From Dehalococcoidales bacterium (lineage in GTDB: Bacteria > Chloroflexota > Dehalococcoidia > Dehalococcoidales > UBA2162): a stretch of DNA of 24,827 nucleotides. Shown one piece after another: positions 4,339 to 18,321 of this stretch. The stretch lies in the NCBI GenBank assembly GCA_036446995.1, contig JAZFUC010000020.1, positions 1-24,827 on the forward strand, in the 5' to 3' direction. Every line of letters starts with the position of its first letter. The first letter of the stretch is position 1. The notes below the pieces were generated by a model. The model worked only from the letters and a program-made list of their open reading frames with translations, did not search any database and was not told the origin of the DNA. The translations under genes and the position numbers were made by a program.

Positions 4339-4941
4339 CTACCGGACGTTTTTAGAGTCCAGGGCGATTGCCCTGTCCAGGTCCGACGGGTAGTTTATAT
4401 TAAAAAAGGAGAGGAGTTCCGGGTCCAGTTTCCGACTTTCCTCAGGTTGGACATATCTGACGCGAACATTGTCCAGGAACGGGGCGACTCCCAGCTGGTT
4501 GCTCTCCAGCAGTTCTTTCATCTCAGGCAGGCAACTCCTGGAGTAAATGGCGTGGAGCGGTTCTACCATTCCGTTCTCAAGTTTGGGGACGATTACATCA
4601 ACCTCATAAGACAGCCCCAGCATATAATTAAGCAACTCCTCATTCAGGAAAGGCATGTCACAGGCGACTACTATGTTGAGGGGGGATTCAGATGCCTGCA
4701 GGCCCGTGTATATGCCGCCTAACGGGCCGGATCCGGGGTAAAGGTCCGCTATAATCTCTGCCTTGCCGGCAGGAAAGTCGGGCAGGTCAGGGGCGGTTAC
4801 CACCAGAAACCGTTCGGTAAGCGGTGTAAGACGCTCCATGACCCGCTCTATCATACTCTGACCGCCGATGGTTATTAAGGCTTTATTCCGTCCAAAACGC
4901 TTATTCCGGCCGCCGGCCAGAATTATTGATGTTGCCTTCAT
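4339..4941 (-). CDS. mobA: Molybdenum/tungsten cofactor guanylyltransferase
   Basis: IILAGG.NKRFG.NKAL, GPLGGI, ACDMPF, EPLHAIYS and FFNINYPSDL motifs; 200 aa. Confidence 0.92.
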   Translation of the reverse strand: MKATSIILAGGRNKRFGRNKALITIGGQSMIERVMERLTPLTERFLVVTAPDLPDFPAGKAEIIADLYPGSGPLGGIYTGLQASESPLNIVVACDMPFLNEELLNYMLGLSYEVDVIVPKLENGMVEPLHAIYSRSCLPEMKELLESNQLGVAPFLDNVRVRYVQPEESRKLDPELLSFFNINYPSDLDRAIALDSKNVR

Positions 4942-4948
4942 TTACCGC

Positions 4949-5605
4949 TCACCCCAGTTGCCTGATTAATTTCCAGGTGATTATCTCACAGAGAACCGTT
5001 ATGTCCTCCGTGGCCAGGTAATCCGTGATTGTGGCATCAAAGAGAATATTCCCCTGGGGCGTCAGTTCCTCGTCACCCTTCCAGAATAATATCGTTATCG
5101 GAACATGGCTGAAGGCATTTATCGTCACGGCTACATCGCCAAAGTTCGTCTTCTCTCCGCCCAGGTCCCGGCTGACCTCGGGTAGTTTGTCAGGGTCATC
5201 ACCGAAGTACCTGGTCAGCGGATTGATGGTCCTCTGGGCAAATGTCGGCGAGTACATACTTCCCTCGGGCAGCTCCTGAAACGTAATTAATTTGTTGCCG
5301 GGCGGGGTGCCTTTGGCTGTTGTAAAGTAGTGAAGAATGAGCAGTTTATCCCGCATCGGAATCTCGTCATCGCTGCCAACCAGAGAAACTTCAGCTTCAG
5401 GCAGGCTGATTTCGTATGGCCGGTTAAGATAGCTGATGATAATTGCCCGCCTGTTGCCGGTTACCTGGTATCGGGCGCCGCTCTTCCGGCATTGTTCCTC
5501 GATGTCCCCGGTGGCGGCAACCTTTTCACGGACAAGCTGGTAGGCAAGCCCATAGGCTTCTTCATAATTCTTCTGTTCCGGTACTGGGATATTTCTGTTT
5601 TCCAT
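4949..5605 (-). CDS. DUF3786-like protein
   Basis: Resemblance from memory to DUF3786 proteins (LLILHY, LITFQELPEG..Y..TF..R.I.PL, ..WKGDEE....NILFD....DYL.TED); 218 aa; no HMM was run. Confidence 0.7.
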   Translation of the reverse strand: MENRNIPVPEQKNYEEAYGLAYQLVREKVAATGDIEEQCRKSGARYQVTGNRRAIIISYLNRPYEISLPEAEVSLVGSDDEIPMRDKLLILHYFTTAKGTPPGNKLITFQELPEGSMYSPTFAQRTINPLTRYFGDDPDKLPEVSRDLGGEKTNFGDVAVTINAFSHVPITILFWKGDEELTPQGNILFDATITDYLATEDITVLCEIITWKLIRQLG

Positions 5606-5658: not shown

Positions 5659-6543
5659 TTACAGCCCGGCGGCGGCCAGGATATCAGGCACTCTTTCCTC
5701 TCTACCGATAGCCATAATATGGACGCCGTCACAGATAGACTCTTCCTTGATGGCTTTTATCATCCGGCCGGCAATCTCGATGCCGGTTTGTAAGGCTTTG
5801 CCTTTTTCGGCCCCGGCCATTTCATCGATAAGCGCCTGGGGAACAAAGATACCGGGGACATTCTCGTTCATAAACCGGGCCATCCTGGCTGAAGTCAGCA
5901 CCACTATTCCGGCCAGGATTTTAGTGTTAAGCGGGCGGGCATATTCCATGAATTTTTTAAGGTTATCTATGTCGTAGACCGCCTGGGTCTGGAAAAACTC
6001 GGCTCCGACGGCCACTTTTTTCTTGAATTTAAGCAGCTGGGGTTCGATTGGGTCCGCTTCAGGGGTGACAACAGCTCCGGCGCAAAACTCAAAGGGGCCG
6101 TCAAGGTCATTGCCTCCGAGGTCTTTACCTGATTCCATCAGACGCACCGTTCTGAGCAGCTGCACCGAATCGAGGTCGAAGACCTGCTTGGCCGCCTTGT
6201 GGTCGCCGACTGTTATCGCGTCGCCCGTCAGGCAGAGCACATTCCTTATCCCTCTCTCGTAAGCGAAGAGGAGGTCAGCCTCCAGGGCCATCCGGTTGCG
6301 GTCCCGGCAGGTCATTTGCAGAATGGGCTCCCCGCCCTTTTCCTTGATTGCCAGGCACACACCCAGCGAAGGATAACGCATCTTCGAGCTCTGGTTATCG
6401 GTGGCGTTAAGGGCGTCAACCTTGTCCTTGAGCAAATCGATGTGATGGAGAGTCTGCTCCATGTTGGTTCCCTTGGGGGGACCAATCTCTGTGGTAGTTA
6501 CGAATTTACCGGAGTTTAAAACTTCTCTAAAAGGTGTAGCCAT
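5659..6543 (-). CDS. metF: Methylenetetrahydrofolate reductase, FAD subunit (MetVF type)
   Basis: EIGPPKG, ATDNQ, QMTCRDRNR.AL, LCLTGD, FFQTQ and HIMA motifs; directly follows metV. Confidence 0.95.
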   Translation of the reverse strand: MATPFREVLNSGKFVTTTEIGPPKGTNMEQTLHHIDLLKDKVDALNATDNQSSKMRYPSLGVCLAIKEKGGEPILQMTCRDRNRMALEADLLFAYERGIRNVLCLTGDAITVGDHKAAKQVFDLDSVQLLRTVRLMESGKDLGGNDLDGPFEFCAGAVVTPEADPIEPQLLKFKKKVAVGAEFFQTQAVYDIDNLKKFMEYARPLNTKILAGIVVLTSARMARFMNENVPGIFVPQALIDEMAGAEKGKALQTGIEIAGRMIKAIKEESICDGVHIMAIGREERVPDILAAAGL

Positions 6544-6556
6544 TGTTCCTCCCCCG

Positions 6557-7201
6557 TTACTTGATAGCGAGTTTTCCGGGTTTCACTACTGCCTGATAAT
6601 TTTTAGGCGGTTGTTCTTTTTCAATAAGGTCAAGCCTGTCCTGTTTTTTCAGGCGGTTATATATCAGCGTCCAGGCGCAATCCTTGTCCGGGTCCACCTC
6701 ACACTTGCCCTTATTTGTGCCTCCGCAGGGGCCGTTCAGCAGGCCTTTGGCGCAGGAAGTTACCGGGCAGATGCCGCCGGTCCAGGCCAGGACGCATTCT
6801 CCGCACTGGGAGCAGACTTCGTCCAACACGCCCTCCAGATTTTCCTTGCCGATAAAGAGAGTATTCAATGCCGGAAAAACCGGTTTTTCATTGAATTGCG
6901 CTACCTGATGCACTCCGTAAGAGCAACTCATCACCAGCAGGCAGTCGGCCTGCTGTATTTCTTCGTCGCTCGCTTCGAGGGCGTACTTGGTTAATTCATC
7001 ACAGGCGGTGGGGATGACCATCCAGCCGGGCACCGTCTTACCTTCGGCTTCCAGCTTGTCCTTCATCTCAAGGACCTCGGCTTTGCCGCCGGTGTGAAGT
7101 GCCGTGGCGCAGGTACCGCAGCCGATAATATATACGGACTTGCACTTGCCCAGGAATTCCTTTATCTCTTCAAACGGTTTTTGTTCCGTAACAGATAGCA
7201 T
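6557..7201 (-). CDS. metV: Methylenetetrahydrofolate reductase Fe-S subunit
   Basis: N-terminal GCGTCAT..TGG and SCSYG; C-terminal CSQCGEC..GGICP..CAKGLLNGPCGG...CEV....CAW Cys-rich domain; 214 aa. Confidence 0.93.
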   Translation of the reverse strand: MLSVTEQKPFEEIKEFLGKCKSVYIIGCGTCATALHTGGKAEVLEMKDKLEAEGKTVPGWMVIPTACDELTKYALEASDEEIQQADCLLVMSCSYGVHQVAQFNEKPVFPALNTLFIGKENLEGVLDEVCSQCGECVLAWTGGICPVTSCAKGLLNGPCGGTNKGKCEVDPDKDCAWTLIYNRLKKQDRLDLIEKEQPPKNYQAVVKPGKLAIK

Positions 7202-7213
7202 TACTTCACCACC

Positions 7214-8413
7214 TTAATCTACTCTAATTCGTTCTTCAAAAGCGTTCCTGAAATGCTGCAGGCTGTCCATCACCGGGTTGGGGGCCGCCTGTCCCAGACC
7301 GCACAGCGAGGAGAGCGTCATCGCGCTGGATAATTGTTCCATGACCGTAATATCACTCTCTTCACCCTGACCGCGGGTAAACTTTTCCAGTATTGTGACC
7401 ATAGCGGCAGTGCCTTCACGGCAGGGAGAACACTTGCCGCAGCTTTCCTCGGCCAGGAATTCCATGGTGCGGTAGAGGATATCAACCACATCCCGGCTCC
7501 GGTTAAATACGGTAACTGCCCCGGCGCCGAGGATAGTCTCAAATGAAAGTTCCGTGTCCAGCATTGTCTCCGGCACGATTCTGCCGGTGGCCCCGCCAAT
7601 CTGGACCAGCTTAACATTTTCCCCGCCGGCCAGGTCCACCACCAGCTCTTTCAGGGTGCTGCCCAGCACAAGTTCATAGACGCCGGGCCTGGTTACATCC
7701 CCGCTGACGGAGAAGACCTTGGTGCCCTTGCTGCGCTCGGTGCCTTCCCGGCTGAACCATTCTCCGCCGTTCCGGATGATGGGGGGGATATTCATCAGCG
7801 TCTCTACATTGTTAATGATCGTCGGTTTGGCTCTCAGCCCCTGGGTCGGAGGGAACGGGGGGCGGGGACGCACTTCTCCCCGTTTTCCTTCTATAGAGTC
7901 CATCAGGGCTGATTCCTCACCACAGATATAAGCGCCGGCTCCTTCTCGGACCTCGATATTTATACCGGCCAGGAAACCCCTTTCCCCGGCTTGCTTAATA
8001 GCCTGATTCAGAAGGTCCAGCAGGTAATGGTATTCAGCTCTAAGGTAGATATAGCTCTGTTTGGCCCCGATGGTCAGGGCGGCGATAGCCAGTCCCTCAA
8101 CGAGACTGAACGGGTCATTCTCCAGCATATACCTGTCCTTGAATGTCCCTACCTCGCCTTCATCAGCGTTGCAGATGGCGTATTTTTCGTCACCCGGCGC
8201 CTGGTAGGCCATCTCCCATTTTACTCCGCAGGGGAAGCCGGCCCCTCCCCGCCCTCTCAGGCCGGAAGTTTTAAGTTCTTCAATTACCTGCTCCGGGGTT
8301 AGCTCGTCACGGACTTTCCGGAGGGCCTTGAAGCCATCCTGTTCCAGGTAGCTGTCAATATTCCCGGGATCGACAATTCCGCAGTTTTTTAATACTATCC
8401 GCTTTTCCGGCAA
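7214..8413 (-). CDS. NuoF/HydB-like FMN/NADH-binding subunit, short form
   Basis: SGLRGRGGAGFP, CNADEGE.GTFKDR, GAGAYICGEESAL, INNVETL, SLBB domain and ESCGKC.PCREG...SLCGLG [4Fe-4S] (C325, C328, C331, C371). 399 aa; TTG start with AGGAG RBS. Confidence 0.93.
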   Translation of the reverse strand: MPEKRIVLKNCGIVDPGNIDSYLEQDGFKALRKVRDELTPEQVIEELKTSGLRGRGGAGFPCGVKWEMAYQAPGDEKYAICNADEGEVGTFKDRYMLENDPFSLVEGLAIAALTIGAKQSYIYLRAEYHYLLDLLNQAIKQAGERGFLAGINIEVREGAGAYICGEESALMDSIEGKRGEVRPRPPFPPTQGLRAKPTIINNVETLMNIPPIIRNGGEWFSREGTERSKGTKVFSVSGDVTRPGVYELVLGSTLKELVVDLAGGENVKLVQIGGATGRIVPETMLDTELSFETILGAGAVTVFNRSRDVVDILYRTMEFLAEESCGKCSPCREGTAAMVTILEKFTRGQGEESDITVMEQLSSAMTLSSLCGLGQAAPNPVMDSLQHFRNAFEERIRVD

Positions 8414-8434
8414 CGATAATCTCCTGCCCTGTGG

Positions 8435-8866
8435 TTATTTGTACTCTTCAAGAATCTGTGATATTTTCCCGGGGGTCAGATTCCCGTGAACATCATCATT
8501 AATCAGCATTGCCGGTGCTTTATCACAGGCGCCGATGCAATTGGTCAGCTCAAACGAGAACCGCCGGTCGGCCGTGGTCTGGCCCGGTTTAATGCCGATT
8601 TCCTTTTCTATGCTTTCAGCCACCGATTCGTAGTTTTTCAGGTGACAGGGAAGACTTTTGCAAATTCTGATTATATTCCTGCCCTGCGGTCTGGTTGAAA
8701 GGAATGAATAAAAAGTGGCCACCCCGTACACGTCACTCCGGGACATATCCAGGGTTTCAGCCAGTTCTATCATCGTTTCTTCGGAGATATAGCCTTCTTC
8801 ATCCTGGGCTTCTTTTAACAGCACCAGCAGGTCTTCAGGAGTTTTGCCTTCAGCAATATTAGTCAT
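8435..8866 (-). CDS. NuoE/HydC-like [2Fe-2S] subunit
   Basis: LKEAQDEEGYIS, VYGVATFYS, ICKSLPCHLK and TNCIGACDKAPAMLIN (four Cys ligands); 143 aa. Confidence 0.93.
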   Translation of the reverse strand: MTNIAEGKTPEDLLVLLKEAQDEEGYISEETMIELAETLDMSRSDVYGVATFYSFLSTRPQGRNIIRICKSLPCHLKNYESVAESIEKEIGIKPGQTTADRRFSFELTNCIGACDKAPAMLINDDVHGNLTPGKISQILEEYK

Positions 8867-8888
8867 TTAATCTCTCTTAATAAGTATA

Positions 8889-9566
8889 CTATCCCTTGAT
8901 AATCAGGGGAGGCCCTTGCTTTTTCTCACCGATTGCTAGCGGTGTGGTCAGGGCGCCGGTGGGACAGACGGGAATACATTTTCCGCAGTCCCTGCAGACC
9001 TCTTTGTTCAGCATCTCGTCGAAATCAACCACTACCCTGGAATCAAAACCCCGGTAGGCGGTACCGAATACCCGTTGTCCAACTACCTCGTTACAGACCC
9101 GGATACAGCGGCGGCAGAGAATGCACTTGGTCATATCGCGGGTAACATAGGGGCTGACATCTTCGATTTGAGAATAGCGTTTCGCGGTCCGGAAGCGGGA
9201 CAGTCCCACATCCAGGTCGGCTGCTACCTTGCGCATTTCACAGATATTGGCTTTTTCACAGAGAAAGCAGGAACCGCAATGGCTGGCCTGGAGCAGTTCC
9301 ATTATCACTCTCCGTGTCTCGAGCACCTTGGGAGAGTGGGTACTGATGACCATCCCCTGGCCCACAGGAGTATGACAGGAGGCCGCCAGCAGTCTGGCGC
9401 CCTCCACCTCGACAACGCAGACCCGGCAGGCACCGGTGGGGGCCAGGCCCTTGATGTAGCACAGTGTGGGTATATCTATGCCCCGGTCCTGGGCTACCTC
9501 AAGGATGGTTTTGCCTGAATCGGCGGTTACTTCTTCGCCGTTTAATGTAAAAGTGACATCGCTCAT
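8889..9566 (-). CDS. Stand-alone NuoG/HydA/FdhA N-terminal Fe-S module, no catalytic domain
   Basis: [2Fe-2S] C36/47/50/64; His-ligated [4Fe-4S] H96/C100/C103/C109; two [4Fe-4S] from CILCRRCIRVC and CRDCGKCIPVCP. Stops at 225 aa (TAG), with an in-frame TAA four codons later. Confidence 0.9.
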   Translation of the reverse strand: MSDVTFTLNGEEVTADSGKTILEVAQDRGIDIPTLCYIKGLAPTGACRVCVVEVEGARLLAASCHTPVGQGMVISTHSPKVLETRRVIMELLQASHCGSCFLCEKANICEMRKVAADLDVGLSRFRTAKRYSQIEDVSPYVTRDMTKCILCRRCIRVCNEVVGQRVFGTAYRGFDSRVVVDFDEMLNKEVCRDCGKCIPVCPTGALTTPLAIGEKKQGPPLIIKG

Positions 9567-9600: not shown

Positions 9601-10479
9601 TTATATCTCCAGCCATGAATGGGAATAAAGAGATTCGCCGGTAAGGACATTGACTGTTTTTACGTACTCAACTTCTTTCTGGTTCAGTGAGGACATATCC
9701 GGTTTCTCTCCGTCCATCACCCGGTGGACCAGGTCAATAATTTCCGGCATTTCTCCCCTGGCCAGGCTGACCAGCTCCGGGTCGAAGGCATCGACGATAG
9801 CCGAATACAGCCCGTATCTCATCAGCATTATCAGGTAAGTCCGGTTTAATTGAGGCCTCAGATGAGCCGGAGTGCCATTGGAGATATTGGACAGTCCCAC
9901 CGTGGATTTGCAGCCGGGAGCGATGTCTCCCAGCATACTCATAAACTCAACGCAGGATTTCACCTGGTTGATTTCCACGGATACCGGACTGGCGATGGGG
10001 TCTATCCAGATATTCTCGGTGGGGATACCGGCCTCGTTCGCCTGGTAAATCAGGTCCACAGCCAGCATACACCTTTCATTAGCGTCCCGGGGCATTCCTT
10101 CTACACCCCAGAGCAGTCCGATCATATCGGCATTGTAATTGGCCGCCAGGGGAAGCCCCTTCTCAAGCCGGTCCGGCTGAAGGGAGATTGAATTTATTAA
10201 AGCCCGGCTTTTACAGACCTTCAGTCCGGCTTCCATAGCTATCGTATTGGTGGTATCCAGTGACAGCGGTTTATCGGTAACCTCCTGCACCGTATTGACC
10301 ACCCATTCCATCAGTTCATCCCCACCCCGGCGGGCCGGGCCGATGTTAATATCAAGATAATCCACCCCACCTTTAAGCTCGGCGAGGGCCATTTCCTGAA
10401 CGGGTTTGGGGTTTCGCTCCTTGAACGCCGGGCCGATGGTCCTGGACATTATATTGATACTCTCGCCAATGAGAATCAT
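9601..10479 (-). CDS. acsE: Methyl-THF:corrinoid Fe-S protein methyltransferase
   Basis: Pterin-binding barrel: MILIGESIN, YLDINIG, LSLDTTN, LINS, IWIDP, GLSNISNG and SAIVD; directly after acsC. Confidence 0.93.
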   Translation of the reverse strand: MILIGESINIMSRTIGPAFKERNPKPVQEMALAELKGGVDYLDINIGPARRGGDELMEWVVNTVQEVTDKPLSLDTTNTIAMEAGLKVCKSRALINSISLQPDRLEKGLPLAANYNADMIGLLWGVEGMPRDANERCMLAVDLIYQANEAGIPTENIWIDPIASPVSVEINQVKSCVEFMSMLGDIAPGCKSTVGLSNISNGTPAHLRPQLNRTYLIMLMRYGLYSAIVDAFDPELVSLARGEMPEIIDLVHRVMDGEKPDMSSLNQKEVEYVKTVNVLTGESLYSHSWLEI

Positions 10480-11946: not shown

Positions 11947-11976
11947 ATTATACCGGTGTGTTCAGTATCCTGTTAA
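11947..11976 (-). promoter_or_regulatory. Putative internal sigma70 promoter upstream of acsC (TTAACA-N18-TATAAT)
   Basis: Perfect TATAAT at 11947-11952 and TTAACA at 11971-11976 on the minus strand, inside the 159-nt acsB-acsC gap. Confidence 0.55.
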
Positions 11977-17198: not shown

Positions 17199-17417
17199 CT
17201 AGGCCGGGGTCTTTCTCTTCTCACTGCCGTACCAGTCATCGCTGTAATAGTATCTTTCACCGGTTTCGAGATATTTCAGCTTCTCAGCCCGGGTGCCCAG
17301 TTTCTGTCTCCATTTACCGACCTGGGTGCCTTCCGGGGTGCCTTCCTCGTAGGTGGCCCCCAGTACCTCCACCTCATCACGGCCGGGAGCGCTCTTCTTC
17401 TCCACCTGATATTCCAT
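17199..17417 (-). CDS. Hypothetical 72-aa hydrophilic protein between folD and acsD
   Basis: Strong AGGAGG RBS 7 nt before ATG 17417 (MEYQVEKKSAPGR...). It fills the folD-acsD gap with 16/14-nt spacers. The track start at 17441 overlaps folD and is less likely. Confidence 0.8.
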   Translation of the reverse strand: MEYQVEKKSAPGRDEVEVLGATYEEGTPEGTQVGKWRQKLGTRAEKLKYLETGERYYYSDDWYGSEKRKTPA

Positions 17418-17433
17418 CCGCTTTCCTCCTTGT

Positions 17434-18321
17434 TTATGCAAGCCCGGCAGCCACTTTGGCCGCCTTAACGGTATTCATCATAAGCATGGTTATGGTCATT
17501 GGCCCCACTCCCCCGGGAACCGGGCTAATGGCGGCCGCTTTTTCACTGACCGATTCGAAATCAACATCTCCGACCAGGATTCTCTTGCCTTCCGCCGTGG
17601 TGCCGATCTGGTTGACGCCGACATCTATAACCACCACGCCCTCCTTGACCATGTCTCCGGTGATGGCTTTGGCCTTGCCGGCGGCGACGATGAGAATATC
17701 GGCCCGCCTGGTATGAAAAGCCATGTCTTTTGTACGGGTGTGGCAGATGGTTACGGTGGCGTTAGCCCCCGGCGCCTTCTGCATCAGGATGTTGGCGATT
17801 GGCTTGCCGACGATATTGCTCCTGCCGACGACGACGACCTCGGCCCCCTCAATCCGGGTGCCGGAGCGAATCAGCAACTGCTGGATGCCGGCCGGGGTGC
17901 AGGGCAGATAATCAGGCTCACCTATCATTAGTTTGCCCACGTTAACCGGGTGAAAACCGTCAACATCCTTTTTGGGGTCGATTGCGTAGAGGACTTCCGT
18001 TTCATTAAGGTGTTTGGGCAGAGGCAGTTGTACCAGTATGCCGTTTATTTTGGCGTCTTTATTTAATTTATCGATAAGTTTCAGCAGGTCTTCCTGACTG
18101 GTGTCTTCGGGCAGGTCGTGTCTTTCCGAATAGATGCCCAGGTTATGGCAAGTTTTTTCTTTAGAGCCGACATATACCTGGGAGGCCGGGTCCGACCCGA
18201 CCAGGACGGTAACCAAACCGGGTACTAGGTTATGTTTTTCTTTAAGATTGGCGATTTCTTCTTTTAGTTCCACCCGAATTTGCTTGGCGGTTTCGGTCCC
18301 GCTTAAAATCTGGGCTGTCAT
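17434..18321 (-). CDS. folD: Bifunctional methylene-THF dehydrogenase/methenyl-THF cyclohydrolase
   Basis: PGLVTVLVG.DPAS..YV..K, GILVQLPLP, KDVDGFHP.N, PCTP.GI, GRSNIVGKP, DVGVN, GDVDF and PVPGGVGPMTI.ML. Confidence 0.98.
   Translation of the reverse strand: MTAQILSGTETAKQIRVELKEEIANLKEKHNLVPGLVTVLVGSDPASQVYVGSKEKTCHNLGIYSERHDLPEDTSQEDLLKLIDKLNKDAKINGILVQLPLPKHLNETEVLYAIDPKKDVDGFHPVNVGKLMIGEPDYLPCTPAGIQQLLIRSGTRIEGAEVVVVGRSNIVGKPIANILMQKAPGANATVTICHTRTKDMAFHTRRADILIVAAGKAKAITGDMVKEGVVVIDVGVNQIGTTAEGKRILVGDVDFESVSEKAAAISPVPGGVGPMTITMLMMNTVKAAKVAAGLA

Follow-up and report, generated by a model that had tools for sequence, protein, structure and literature searches.

Five contiguous minus-strand genes, nuoG'-nuoE-nuoF-metV-metF, were analyzed in a 24,827-nt stretch of DNA from a Dehalococcoidales bacterium (contig JAZFUC010000020.1, positions 1 to 24,827; hereafter the window) and, on balance, we consider it probable that they encode one soluble, non-bifurcating and ferredoxin-independent NAD(H):methylene-tetrahydrofolate (methylene-THF) oxidoreductase. 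The electron donor of methylene-THF reductase (MTHFR) is a long-standing open question of Wood-Ljungdahl bioenergetics, and whether this very exergonic step is coupled (through Hdr or Bfu proteins), wasted (with NADH) or driven by ferredoxin determines how much ATP acetogens gain and whether the pathway can be run in reverse. The original prediction had presented the arrangement as a candidate new architecture, but a pentamer of MetFV and NuoEFG had already been put forward as hypothetical by Yi et al. 2021 (PMC8515935), and the window is best filed as a short, apparently non-bifurcating variant of this NuoEFG-linked ('X-type') MetVF reductase. What is new here is that the type, judged from sequence, comes in two forms, short and long, within one bacterial family.

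The MTHFR classes of Yi et al. 2021 are the E. coli type, ferredoxin-dependent MetFV alone (2S, Clostridium ljungdahlii), RnfC2-MetFV (3S, Acetobacterium woodii) and HdrABC-MvhD-MetFV (6S, Moorella), together with the 'X type', a hypothetical MetFV-NuoEFG pentamer reported as widespread in Desulfobacterales and Chloroflexi, unstudied, and with bifurcation guessed (PMC8515935); the wording 'hypothetical Pentamer MTHFR' is found in the legend of Fig. S6 of that paper. The accompanying claim that there is no characterized example has held up, as no biochemical or structural study of a NuoEFG-linked MetVF was found in the literature searched. The survey of the Bfu family mentions neither MetF nor MetV, and NuoEFG-MetVF goes unmentioned in the studies consulted on Chloroflexi and Actinobacteria single cells, Carboxydocella, haloalkaline syntrophic acetate oxidation and an acetate-oxidizing consortium.

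The five genes follow acsE (9601-10479, minus strand; Pfam Pterin_bind, NCBIfam PRK07535 at 233.6 bits) head to tail on the same strand. They are nuoG' (8889-9566, 225 aa; Pfam Fer2_4, NADH-G_4Fe-4S_3 and Fer4_Nqo3), nuoE (8435-8866, 143 aa; Pfam 2Fe-2S_thioredx, PF01257, E 9e-50), nuoF (7214-8413, 399 aa; Pfam Complex1_51K, SLBB and NADH_4Fe-4S), metV (6557-7201, 214 aa; Pfam DUF5981, 'MTHFR C-terminal', PF12225, E 1.5e-37) and metF (5659-6543, 294 aa; Pfam MTHFR, PF02219, E 1e-39). Recomputation of the gaps from acsE to metF gave 34, 22, 21, 12 and 13 nt, identical to the values given originally, and Pfam and NCBIfam searches of the whole window agreed that it contains no gene for a hydrogenase, formate dehydrogenase (Fdh), Hdr, Mvh, Rnf or complex I membrane subunit. 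Since the gene order from acsB to mmdA recurs on contigs of two other genomes (L015, L017) and the GC content is even along the window, the acsE-to-metF arrangement is not an assembly artefact.

NuoG' is a stand-alone polyferredoxin equivalent to the N-terminal Fe-S domain of NuoG, HydA, FdhA and HoxU. It carries ligands for one [2Fe-2S] cluster (C36, C47, C50, C64), one His-ligated [4Fe-4S] cluster (H96, C100, C103, C109) and two further [4Fe-4S] clusters (C148/151/154/158 and C191/194/197/201), and all 16 ligands (15 Cys and His96) were invariant in 18 orthologues. The protein has no catalytic or Mo-pterin domain and ends where HydA, FdhA and NuoG run on into theirs. In the PDB sequence search residues 1-207 matched HydA1 1-207 of 7q4v (E 1e-53), and PDB alignments spanned residues 1-208 only; on the NCBIfam FeFe-A6 N-terminus the score was 220 bits. 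NuoE is a thioredoxin-like [2Fe-2S] subunit in which C69, C74, C110 and C114 are all present, while NuoF is a minimal NAD(H)/FMN/[4Fe-4S] flavoprotein which keeps the four Cys of the N3 site and the FMN loop. It has neither the N-terminal [2Fe-2S] domain nor the C-terminal 2x[4Fe-4S] domain, and its residues 3-397 matched HydB 115-526 in 7t2r and 7q4v in the PDB sequence search.

To score bifurcation signatures 22 NuoF homologues were aligned and examined on the four criteria of Losey et al. 2020, under which bifurcating enzymes are marked by A/E-x-M close to the NADH site, by F in the FMN loop and by GGPSG within the SLBB domain (PMC7311640). Short NuoF proteins (from the window, the aligned Dehalococcoidia orthologues, Poribacteria and two sister sequences, a degenerate copy from genome G008, locus L029, being excluded) had GTFKD, GAGAY.CGEE and GGxxG, never GGPSG, and no extra domains. 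Bifurcating-type NuoF proteins (every long form, ordinary HydB and a NuoF on contig C45 of the window's own genome) instead had GAFMD, GAGAF.CGEE and GGPSG, with an N-terminal extension and a C-terminal Fe-S domain of at least 116 and at least 68 residues, respectively, in the first alignment. The window NuoF (GTFKD, GAGAYICGEE, GGATG) matched the non-bifurcating state on all four criteria, with both the domains and the motifs of Bfu proteins lacking, in agreement with a non-bifurcating enzyme.

A bifurcating or confurcating MTHFR would couple NADH oxidation to the reduction of methylene-THF and ferredoxin or, in reverse, use methyl-THF and reduced ferredoxin to reduce 2 NAD+, and in this way remove the energetic waste or the endergonic reverse reaction. 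It is what Yi et al. 2021 guessed for the X type (PMC8515935), the window NuoF finds its best PDB matches in the HydB proteins from bifurcating enzymes (428 bits; Nqo1 reaches 365), and long-type operons of the same family bear bifurcating signatures. We nevertheless regard such an enzyme as improbable for the window, where the non-bifurcating residue is found at all three diagnostic motifs, sites B2-B5 are missing and no ferredoxin-binding domain is evident. According to Li et al. 2025, sites B2-B5 are absent from non-bifurcating homologues (5XF9, 6TGA, complex I), and HydABC no longer bifurcates once B3/B4 are deleted (PMC11829005). In the NuoF tree the short forms grouped together as a clade (99% SH-aLRT) and were separate from the bifurcating clade, in which the long forms fall, and the bifurcation guess of Yi et al. 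thus appears to fit the long form and not the short form of the window.

The long form was read in operons from Desulfarculales and Desulfobacteraceae metagenome-assembled genomes (MAGs; L053, L044) and from five genomes that belong to the same family or order as the window (L121-L125, from G003, G030, G023, G019 and G011). Unlike the window, these operons encode an 850-905-aa NuoG-like protein, a NuoE of about 160 aa and a NuoF of 1024-1065 aa that bears a fused GltD-like NAD(P)H/FAD domain and bifurcating signatures, followed by MetV and MetF. Compared with the real selenocysteine (Sec)-containing FdhA of the window's genome, the Mo-pterin domain of the long-form NuoG is catalytically dead, with no Sec/Cys-His and an altered Arg motif, and a function as a working formate dehydrogenase was rejected on these missing motifs. 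Long and short forms occur side by side in genome G030, and the NuoF of a Bacillota MAG, at 545 aa, marks a form intermediate between them. Because the short and long NuoF clades are separate (45-48% identity between the window NuoF and the long type), we also rejected the short form as a recent in-place truncation of a local long form. The X type (group III of Yi et al.) as given for Dethiosulfatarculus sandiegensis resembles the window in having genes for NuoE, NuoF and NuoG homologues directly upstream of metV-metF (PMC8515935). MetF of the X-type-like operons is 64-77% identical to the window MetF, and the window MetV is 55-58% identical to the Desulfobacterota copies, in a comparison that consists of L053, L044 and L121-L125. 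We see about an even chance that the short cassette of Dehalococcoidia and Poribacteria constitutes a distinct, streamlined, ferredoxin-independent MTHFR type, with a HoxEFU-like diaphorase on MetV, an origin separate from that of the Bfu-type long form and an exchangeable MetF.

The window proteins also differ from the other known modules that resemble them. On complex I models only NuoE scored above the cut-offs (NF005722, 160.2 against 141; TIGR01958, 147.4 against 142.4), with NuoG' at 165.6 on TIGR01973 (cut-off 470; there is no full-length NuoG) and NuoF at 430 on TIGR01959 (cut-off 558.65), and neither the window nor the related loci that were read contained a nuo membrane gene. The NCBIfam scores for HoxEFU were likewise low (HoxU, NuoG' at 200.6 bits against a cut-off of 333; HoxE, 110.1 against 224). 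HoxEFU/HoxFU and FdsGB, which are non-bifurcating (PMC11829005), resemble the window in that a HoxU-like four-cluster protein and NuoE- and NuoF-like subunits link NAD(H) to a separate catalytic module. That module is a hydrogenase or Fdh in their case and MetVF in the window, whose NuoF also lacks the N-terminal extension of HoxF. The A. woodii 3S enzyme shares with the window a MetVF core to which an NADH/FMN/Fe-S input has been added (PMC8515935), and the same predicted function, non-bifurcating reduction of methylene-THF by NADH. The input modules are non-homologous at the level of subunits, however, being one RnfC-type protein with a MetV-like N-terminus in A. woodii and three NuoEFG/HoxEFU-type proteins here; NuoF scored 36.4 bits on the rnfC model (cut-off 245.95), and no gene in the window encodes an RnfC-like flavoprotein with a MetV-like N-terminus. 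The non-bifurcating, NADH-dependent [FeFe]-hydrogenases Hyd1ABC of Syntrophomonas wolfei and HydAB of Syntrophus aciditrophicus (Losey et al. 2017, 2020) have, like the window, a short beta subunit that lacks additional Fe-S domains and shows T/K, Y and non-GGPSG signatures (short Syntrophomonas NuoF copies are 49% identical to the window NuoF), but their Fe-S domain is fused to the H-cluster domain, whereas in the window it is a separate protein with MetVF as partner. The BfuABC enzymes (HydABC, NfnABC/Stn, Fdh-Bfu) have homologous B and C subunits and a homologous A N-terminal domain and gave the best PDB matches; they differ from the window in sites B2-B5 and in their bifurcating motifs.

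MetV is predicted to be the Fe-S/Zn subunit of a MetVF-type MTHFR. It has DUF5981, the motif NGPCGG at residues 156-161 and sets of Cys suited to two [4Fe-4S] clusters (and Zn), and its gene lies directly upstream of metF, 13 nt away. Its 12 Cys residues (C28, C31, C67, C93, C130, C133, C136, C145, C150, C159, C167 and C175) were 99-100% conserved over about 145 homologues, which carry the database name 'MTHFR C-terminal domain-containing protein'. MetF, whose residues 6-292 align with positions 3-286 of the 287 of PF02219, is the predicted catalytic (flavin) subunit, and its product would be consumed by AcsE, encoded directly upstream of the block and predicted to be the methyl-THF:corrinoid/Fe-S protein methyltransferase. 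The PDB sequence search with MetV gave no match at E 0.01 or better. An AlphaFold2 model of MetV, made from a 52-sequence alignment, had a mean pLDDT of 71, with a confident alpha/beta domain at residues 1-120 and values below 50 in the Cys-rich C-terminal half. Foldseek comparison of this model with the PDB returned generic alpha/beta lobes (periplasmic-binding-protein-type, Dph2, NAD kinase; TM about 0.3), and the model offered no functional lead and no sign of a dinucleotide site.

The source MAG (1.27 Mb) is 72.6% complete, so that absences from it are weak evidence. A search of this genome showed that the window metF is the sole MTHFR-domain gene in the assembled part; a second MTHFR may lie in the unassembled part. 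A second MetV paralogue, 43% identical and cut by the contig end, was seen on contig C254 (L113, 1-630). Natural MetF::MetV fusions of 521-673 aa, with the MTHFR domain followed by a C-terminal DUF5981, occur in relatives (L118, 1081-3102; L119, 1127-3106; L120, 1540-3105), and one of the carriers is a complete 1.5-Mb genome.

From these observed parts and ligands, the synteny and the non-bifurcating signature, we infer the complex, its electron path, its donor and its direction. NuoF would bind NADH and pass a hydride to FMN, from which single electrons would travel via the NuoF [4Fe-4S] cluster to the cluster chain of NuoG', with the [2Fe-2S] cluster of NuoE next to the flavin, its place in complex I, HoxEFU and FdsGB. 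The distal [4Fe-4S] cluster of NuoG', whose counterpart in HydA, FdhA and NuoG faces the catalytic domain, would deliver electrons to the MetV clusters and these in turn to the MetF flavin, where methylene-THF would be reduced to methyl-THF for AcsE. NuoG'EF would in this way take the role of A. woodii RnfC2, with MetV and not MetF as docking partner. The wire from NADH through FMN and the Fe-S clusters to MetV and MetF, as originally drawn, is plausible by domain content. If E0' is taken as about -320 mV for the NAD+/NADH couple and as about -200 mV for methylene-/methyl-THF, the reduction is exergonic by about 23 kJ/mol, and NADH-driven methylene-THF reduction conserves no energy at that step.

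To survey conservation, 40 relatives were searched (24 genomes of the same family and 16 of the same order), 20 loci were fetched and the window proteins were placed on them by tblastn. A contig search with the NuoG' alignment gave at least 600 stretches, of which 80 loci were kept, mostly ordinary HydABC or Fdh operons. A NuoG' orthologue was found in 19 of the 40 relatives (56-68% identity, frames of about 225-255 aa), and across 18 loci every gene that fitted on its contig obeyed the order nuoG'-nuoE-nuoF-metV-metF, with all five present in 13. Within the same Dehalococcoidia family and order, about 18 genera have the block. A Candidatus Poribacteria MAG has the same five genes (225, 148, 401, 221 and 296 aa; 53-72% identity) among unrelated neighbors. 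The synteny survey called for by the original prediction therefore came out in its favor, the adjacency being conserved and specific. In an even sample of 300 Chloroflexota genomes three had an orthologue, all of them Dehalococcoidia, and NuoG'EF-MetVF is thus lineage-restricted within the Chloroflexota and not phylum-wide; for comparison, AcsB was present in 38 of 41 order-level genomes (the 40 relatives and the window's own).

In 10 of the 18 loci the end of nuoF and the beginning of metV share 4 nt (starts having been placed by alignment to the window protein), which suggests translational coupling. A histidine-kinase gene of about 475 aa stands between metV and metF in four loci (L018, 8284-11483; L024, 8347-9780; L022; L029, 1804-3336), and in L018, the only locus scanned downstream of metF, two single-domain response-regulator genes come after metF. 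The kinase and regulator genes suggest dedicated regulation of the reductase in some genera. Given the overlaps and the kinase-split metV-metF pairs, metV is bound more tightly to nuoF than to metF.

The position of nuoG', 34 nt past acsE and inside the acs operon of the window, could be taken to mean that NuoG'EF feeds carbon monoxide dehydrogenase/acetyl-CoA synthase (CODH/ACS) or the corrinoid Fe-S protein, for example in reductive activation, and not MetVF. We give this hardly any credence. Although acsE is directly upstream of the block in seven loci, as in the window, acs genes are missing for 4-7 kb around it in at least six of the relatives' loci (L016, L018, L019, L024, L028, L034), and at least eight loci, counting Poribacteria, lack a nearby acs gene; the five-gene unit therefore travels independently of the acs operon. 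NADH, at about -320 mV, is also not reducing enough to drive Co(II)/Co(I) activation or the CO2/CO couple unless further energy is supplied.

MetF appears to be replaced or exchangeable between operon types, with the NuoG'EF-MetV core held constant. The short operons contain at least three MetF lineages (80-84%, 50-53% and 41-44% identity to the window MetF), whereas NuoF across these operons (L013-L034) is 66-76% identical to that of the window. The window MetF, with those of L013, L014 and L017, clusters with MetF of long-form operons (100/99 support, 73-77% identity), while in most other short operons MetF is only 41-44% identical to the window's and is related to an Hdr-linked copy. Forcing the short-operon MetF sequences to be monophyletic cost 289 log-likelihood units (p-AU 0.037), for a group that was named after inspection of the tree. 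The constant core leads us to suggest MetV as the docking and electron-entry subunit.

Outside the Dehalococcoidia the nearest short-diaphorase relatives among the matches listed came from an Acidobacteriota MAG and an Olavius-symbiont MAG. These two sister diaphorase loci (L035, 6938-12572; L036, 4502-10149) encode a NuoG'::NuoE fusion of 387-389 aa and then a short non-bifurcating NuoF, directly upstream of a [2Fe-2S] subunit and a Mo-hydroxylase of the xanthine dehydrogenase family, where the diaphorase may stand in for the usual FAD subunit. NuoG'EF looks like a portable NAD(H) coupler for whichever enzyme is encoded beside it.

Other NuoG'-like proteins were seen in further settings. On contig C168 of the window's own genome (L114, 2-5570) a NuoG'-like polyferredoxin is encoded beside ATP-dependent BcrAD/HGD-type reductase/dehydratase genes, and in G023 (L023, 5486-10464) a NuoG'-like protein is found beside a 1319-aa BcrAD/DUF2229 activase with no NuoEF. 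In G008 (L029, C26 890-8103, minus strand) a full-length Sec FdhA (Sec355, motif CARL-U-HAP), 57% identical to NuoG' over the Fe-S domain, occupies the NuoG' position. Next come a NuoF whose FMN loop is degenerate (GSAPYVTGDE, GTSKD), MetV, a histidine kinase and MetF, and there is no NuoE. This operon may be a formate-linked variant of the methylene-THF reductase, and it hints that the N-termini of NuoG' and FdhA interconvert.

These associations bear on whether NuoG'EF could be a free-standing diaphorase that is merely co-transcribed, with MetVF acting as a ferredoxin-dependent heterodimer as in Clostridium ljungdahlii; the diaphorase would then be an NADH:ferredoxin or viologen-type oxidoreductase, a detachable N-module of an 11-subunit-type complex I or the donor of another enzyme. 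MetVF of C. ljungdahlii alone is active with reduced ferredoxin (PMC8515935), members of this diaphorase clade partner different enzymes in other genomes, the orphan NuoG' of G023 adjoins an activase, and the window's genome has NuoL/M/N-type genes with no other short NuoEF found in it. We consider this arrangement unlikely, though less so than bifurcation, because the block stays beside metV in about 18 genera and in Poribacteria whatever the acs or nuo context, often with the 4-nt overlap into metV, and was never beside nuoA-N genes in the loci read. NuoG' moreover lacks the large C-terminal domain, the part by which NuoG is built into complex I.

Nor does the genome offer an evident alternative catalytic partner; there is none in the window, in line with the original prediction, and Fdh is provided for elsewhere. 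On contig C45 (L115) NuoE is followed by a bifurcating-type NuoF of 643 aa and by a NuoG-like protein that the contig end cuts off after its start, and contig C30 (L116) opens with a NuoG-like domain which runs into a Sec (TGA) formate dehydrogenase, FdhA. The two are probably a single Fdh-NuoEF operon split by the assembly, and from this gene content the formate dehydrogenase has its own flavoprotein pair. No Rnf, [NiFe]-hydrogenase or [FeFe]-hydrogenase genes were found in the 72.6%-complete MAG.

Several points weigh against assigning NuoG'EF-MetVF as an NADH-driven, non-bifurcating reductase. NADH and NADPH are indistinguishable by sequence, and the criteria of Losey et al. are empirical, drawn from 17 hydrogenase and complex I sequences and not from MTHFRs. 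If the pathway runs oxidatively, oxidation of methyl-THF with NAD+ becomes endergonic, which would argue for a coupling we do not see. A second role of the module as an N-module is conceivable since the genome has NuoL/M/N genes and no other short NuoEF and the MAG is incomplete. Adjacency alone could also mislead, as the module clade is promiscuous and NuoG'-like proteins occur near BCR/HGD genes.

The remaining window genes, identified with Pfam and NCBIfam, lie around the block. On the minus strand the order is glmU, glmS, cooC, fhs, acsF/cooC, folD, an 80-aa ORF, acsD, acsA (CODH), acsB, acsC, acsE, nuoG'EF, metV and metF, and past metF are a DUF3786 gene, mobA, dsbD, a peroxiredoxin gene, a gene for a 102-aa Cys protein and mmdA. 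The DUF3786 gene (4949-5605, minus strand; Pfam PF12654) starts 53 nt past metF, and mobA (4339-4941) is 7 nt beyond it. DUF3786 may be an accessory gene outside the conserved core; among the loci compared it adjoins metF only in L015, L017 and L033. The best match of a consensus scan for promoters was a sigma-70-like site ahead of acsC (11947-11976, minus strand; TTAACA-18-TATAAT, 11/12 match), and the same kind of scan of the window gave no minus-strand terminator-like site in the gaps from acsE to metF. These weak indications are consistent with a transcription unit acsC-acsE-nuoG'EF-metVF(-DUF3786-mobA). The 102-aa protein (2626-2934) has four Cys and is 76% conserved in L015 and L017, and the 80-aa ORF (17199-17441), between folD and acsD, has no Cys. 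An Rfam search of the window gave no family at or above threshold.

As a compact five-gene cassette of about 3.9 kb the short form is open to direct expression and assay and, if our assignment is true, no NADH-driven MetVF enzyme would be simpler to study or transplant. It would also mean that in these widespread subsurface bacteria the methyl branch of the Wood-Ljungdahl pathway is energetically 'wasteful' and resembles that of A. woodii. For the ecology of the Dehalococcoidia, the cassette points to abundant subsurface lineages whose methyl branch is linked to NADH.

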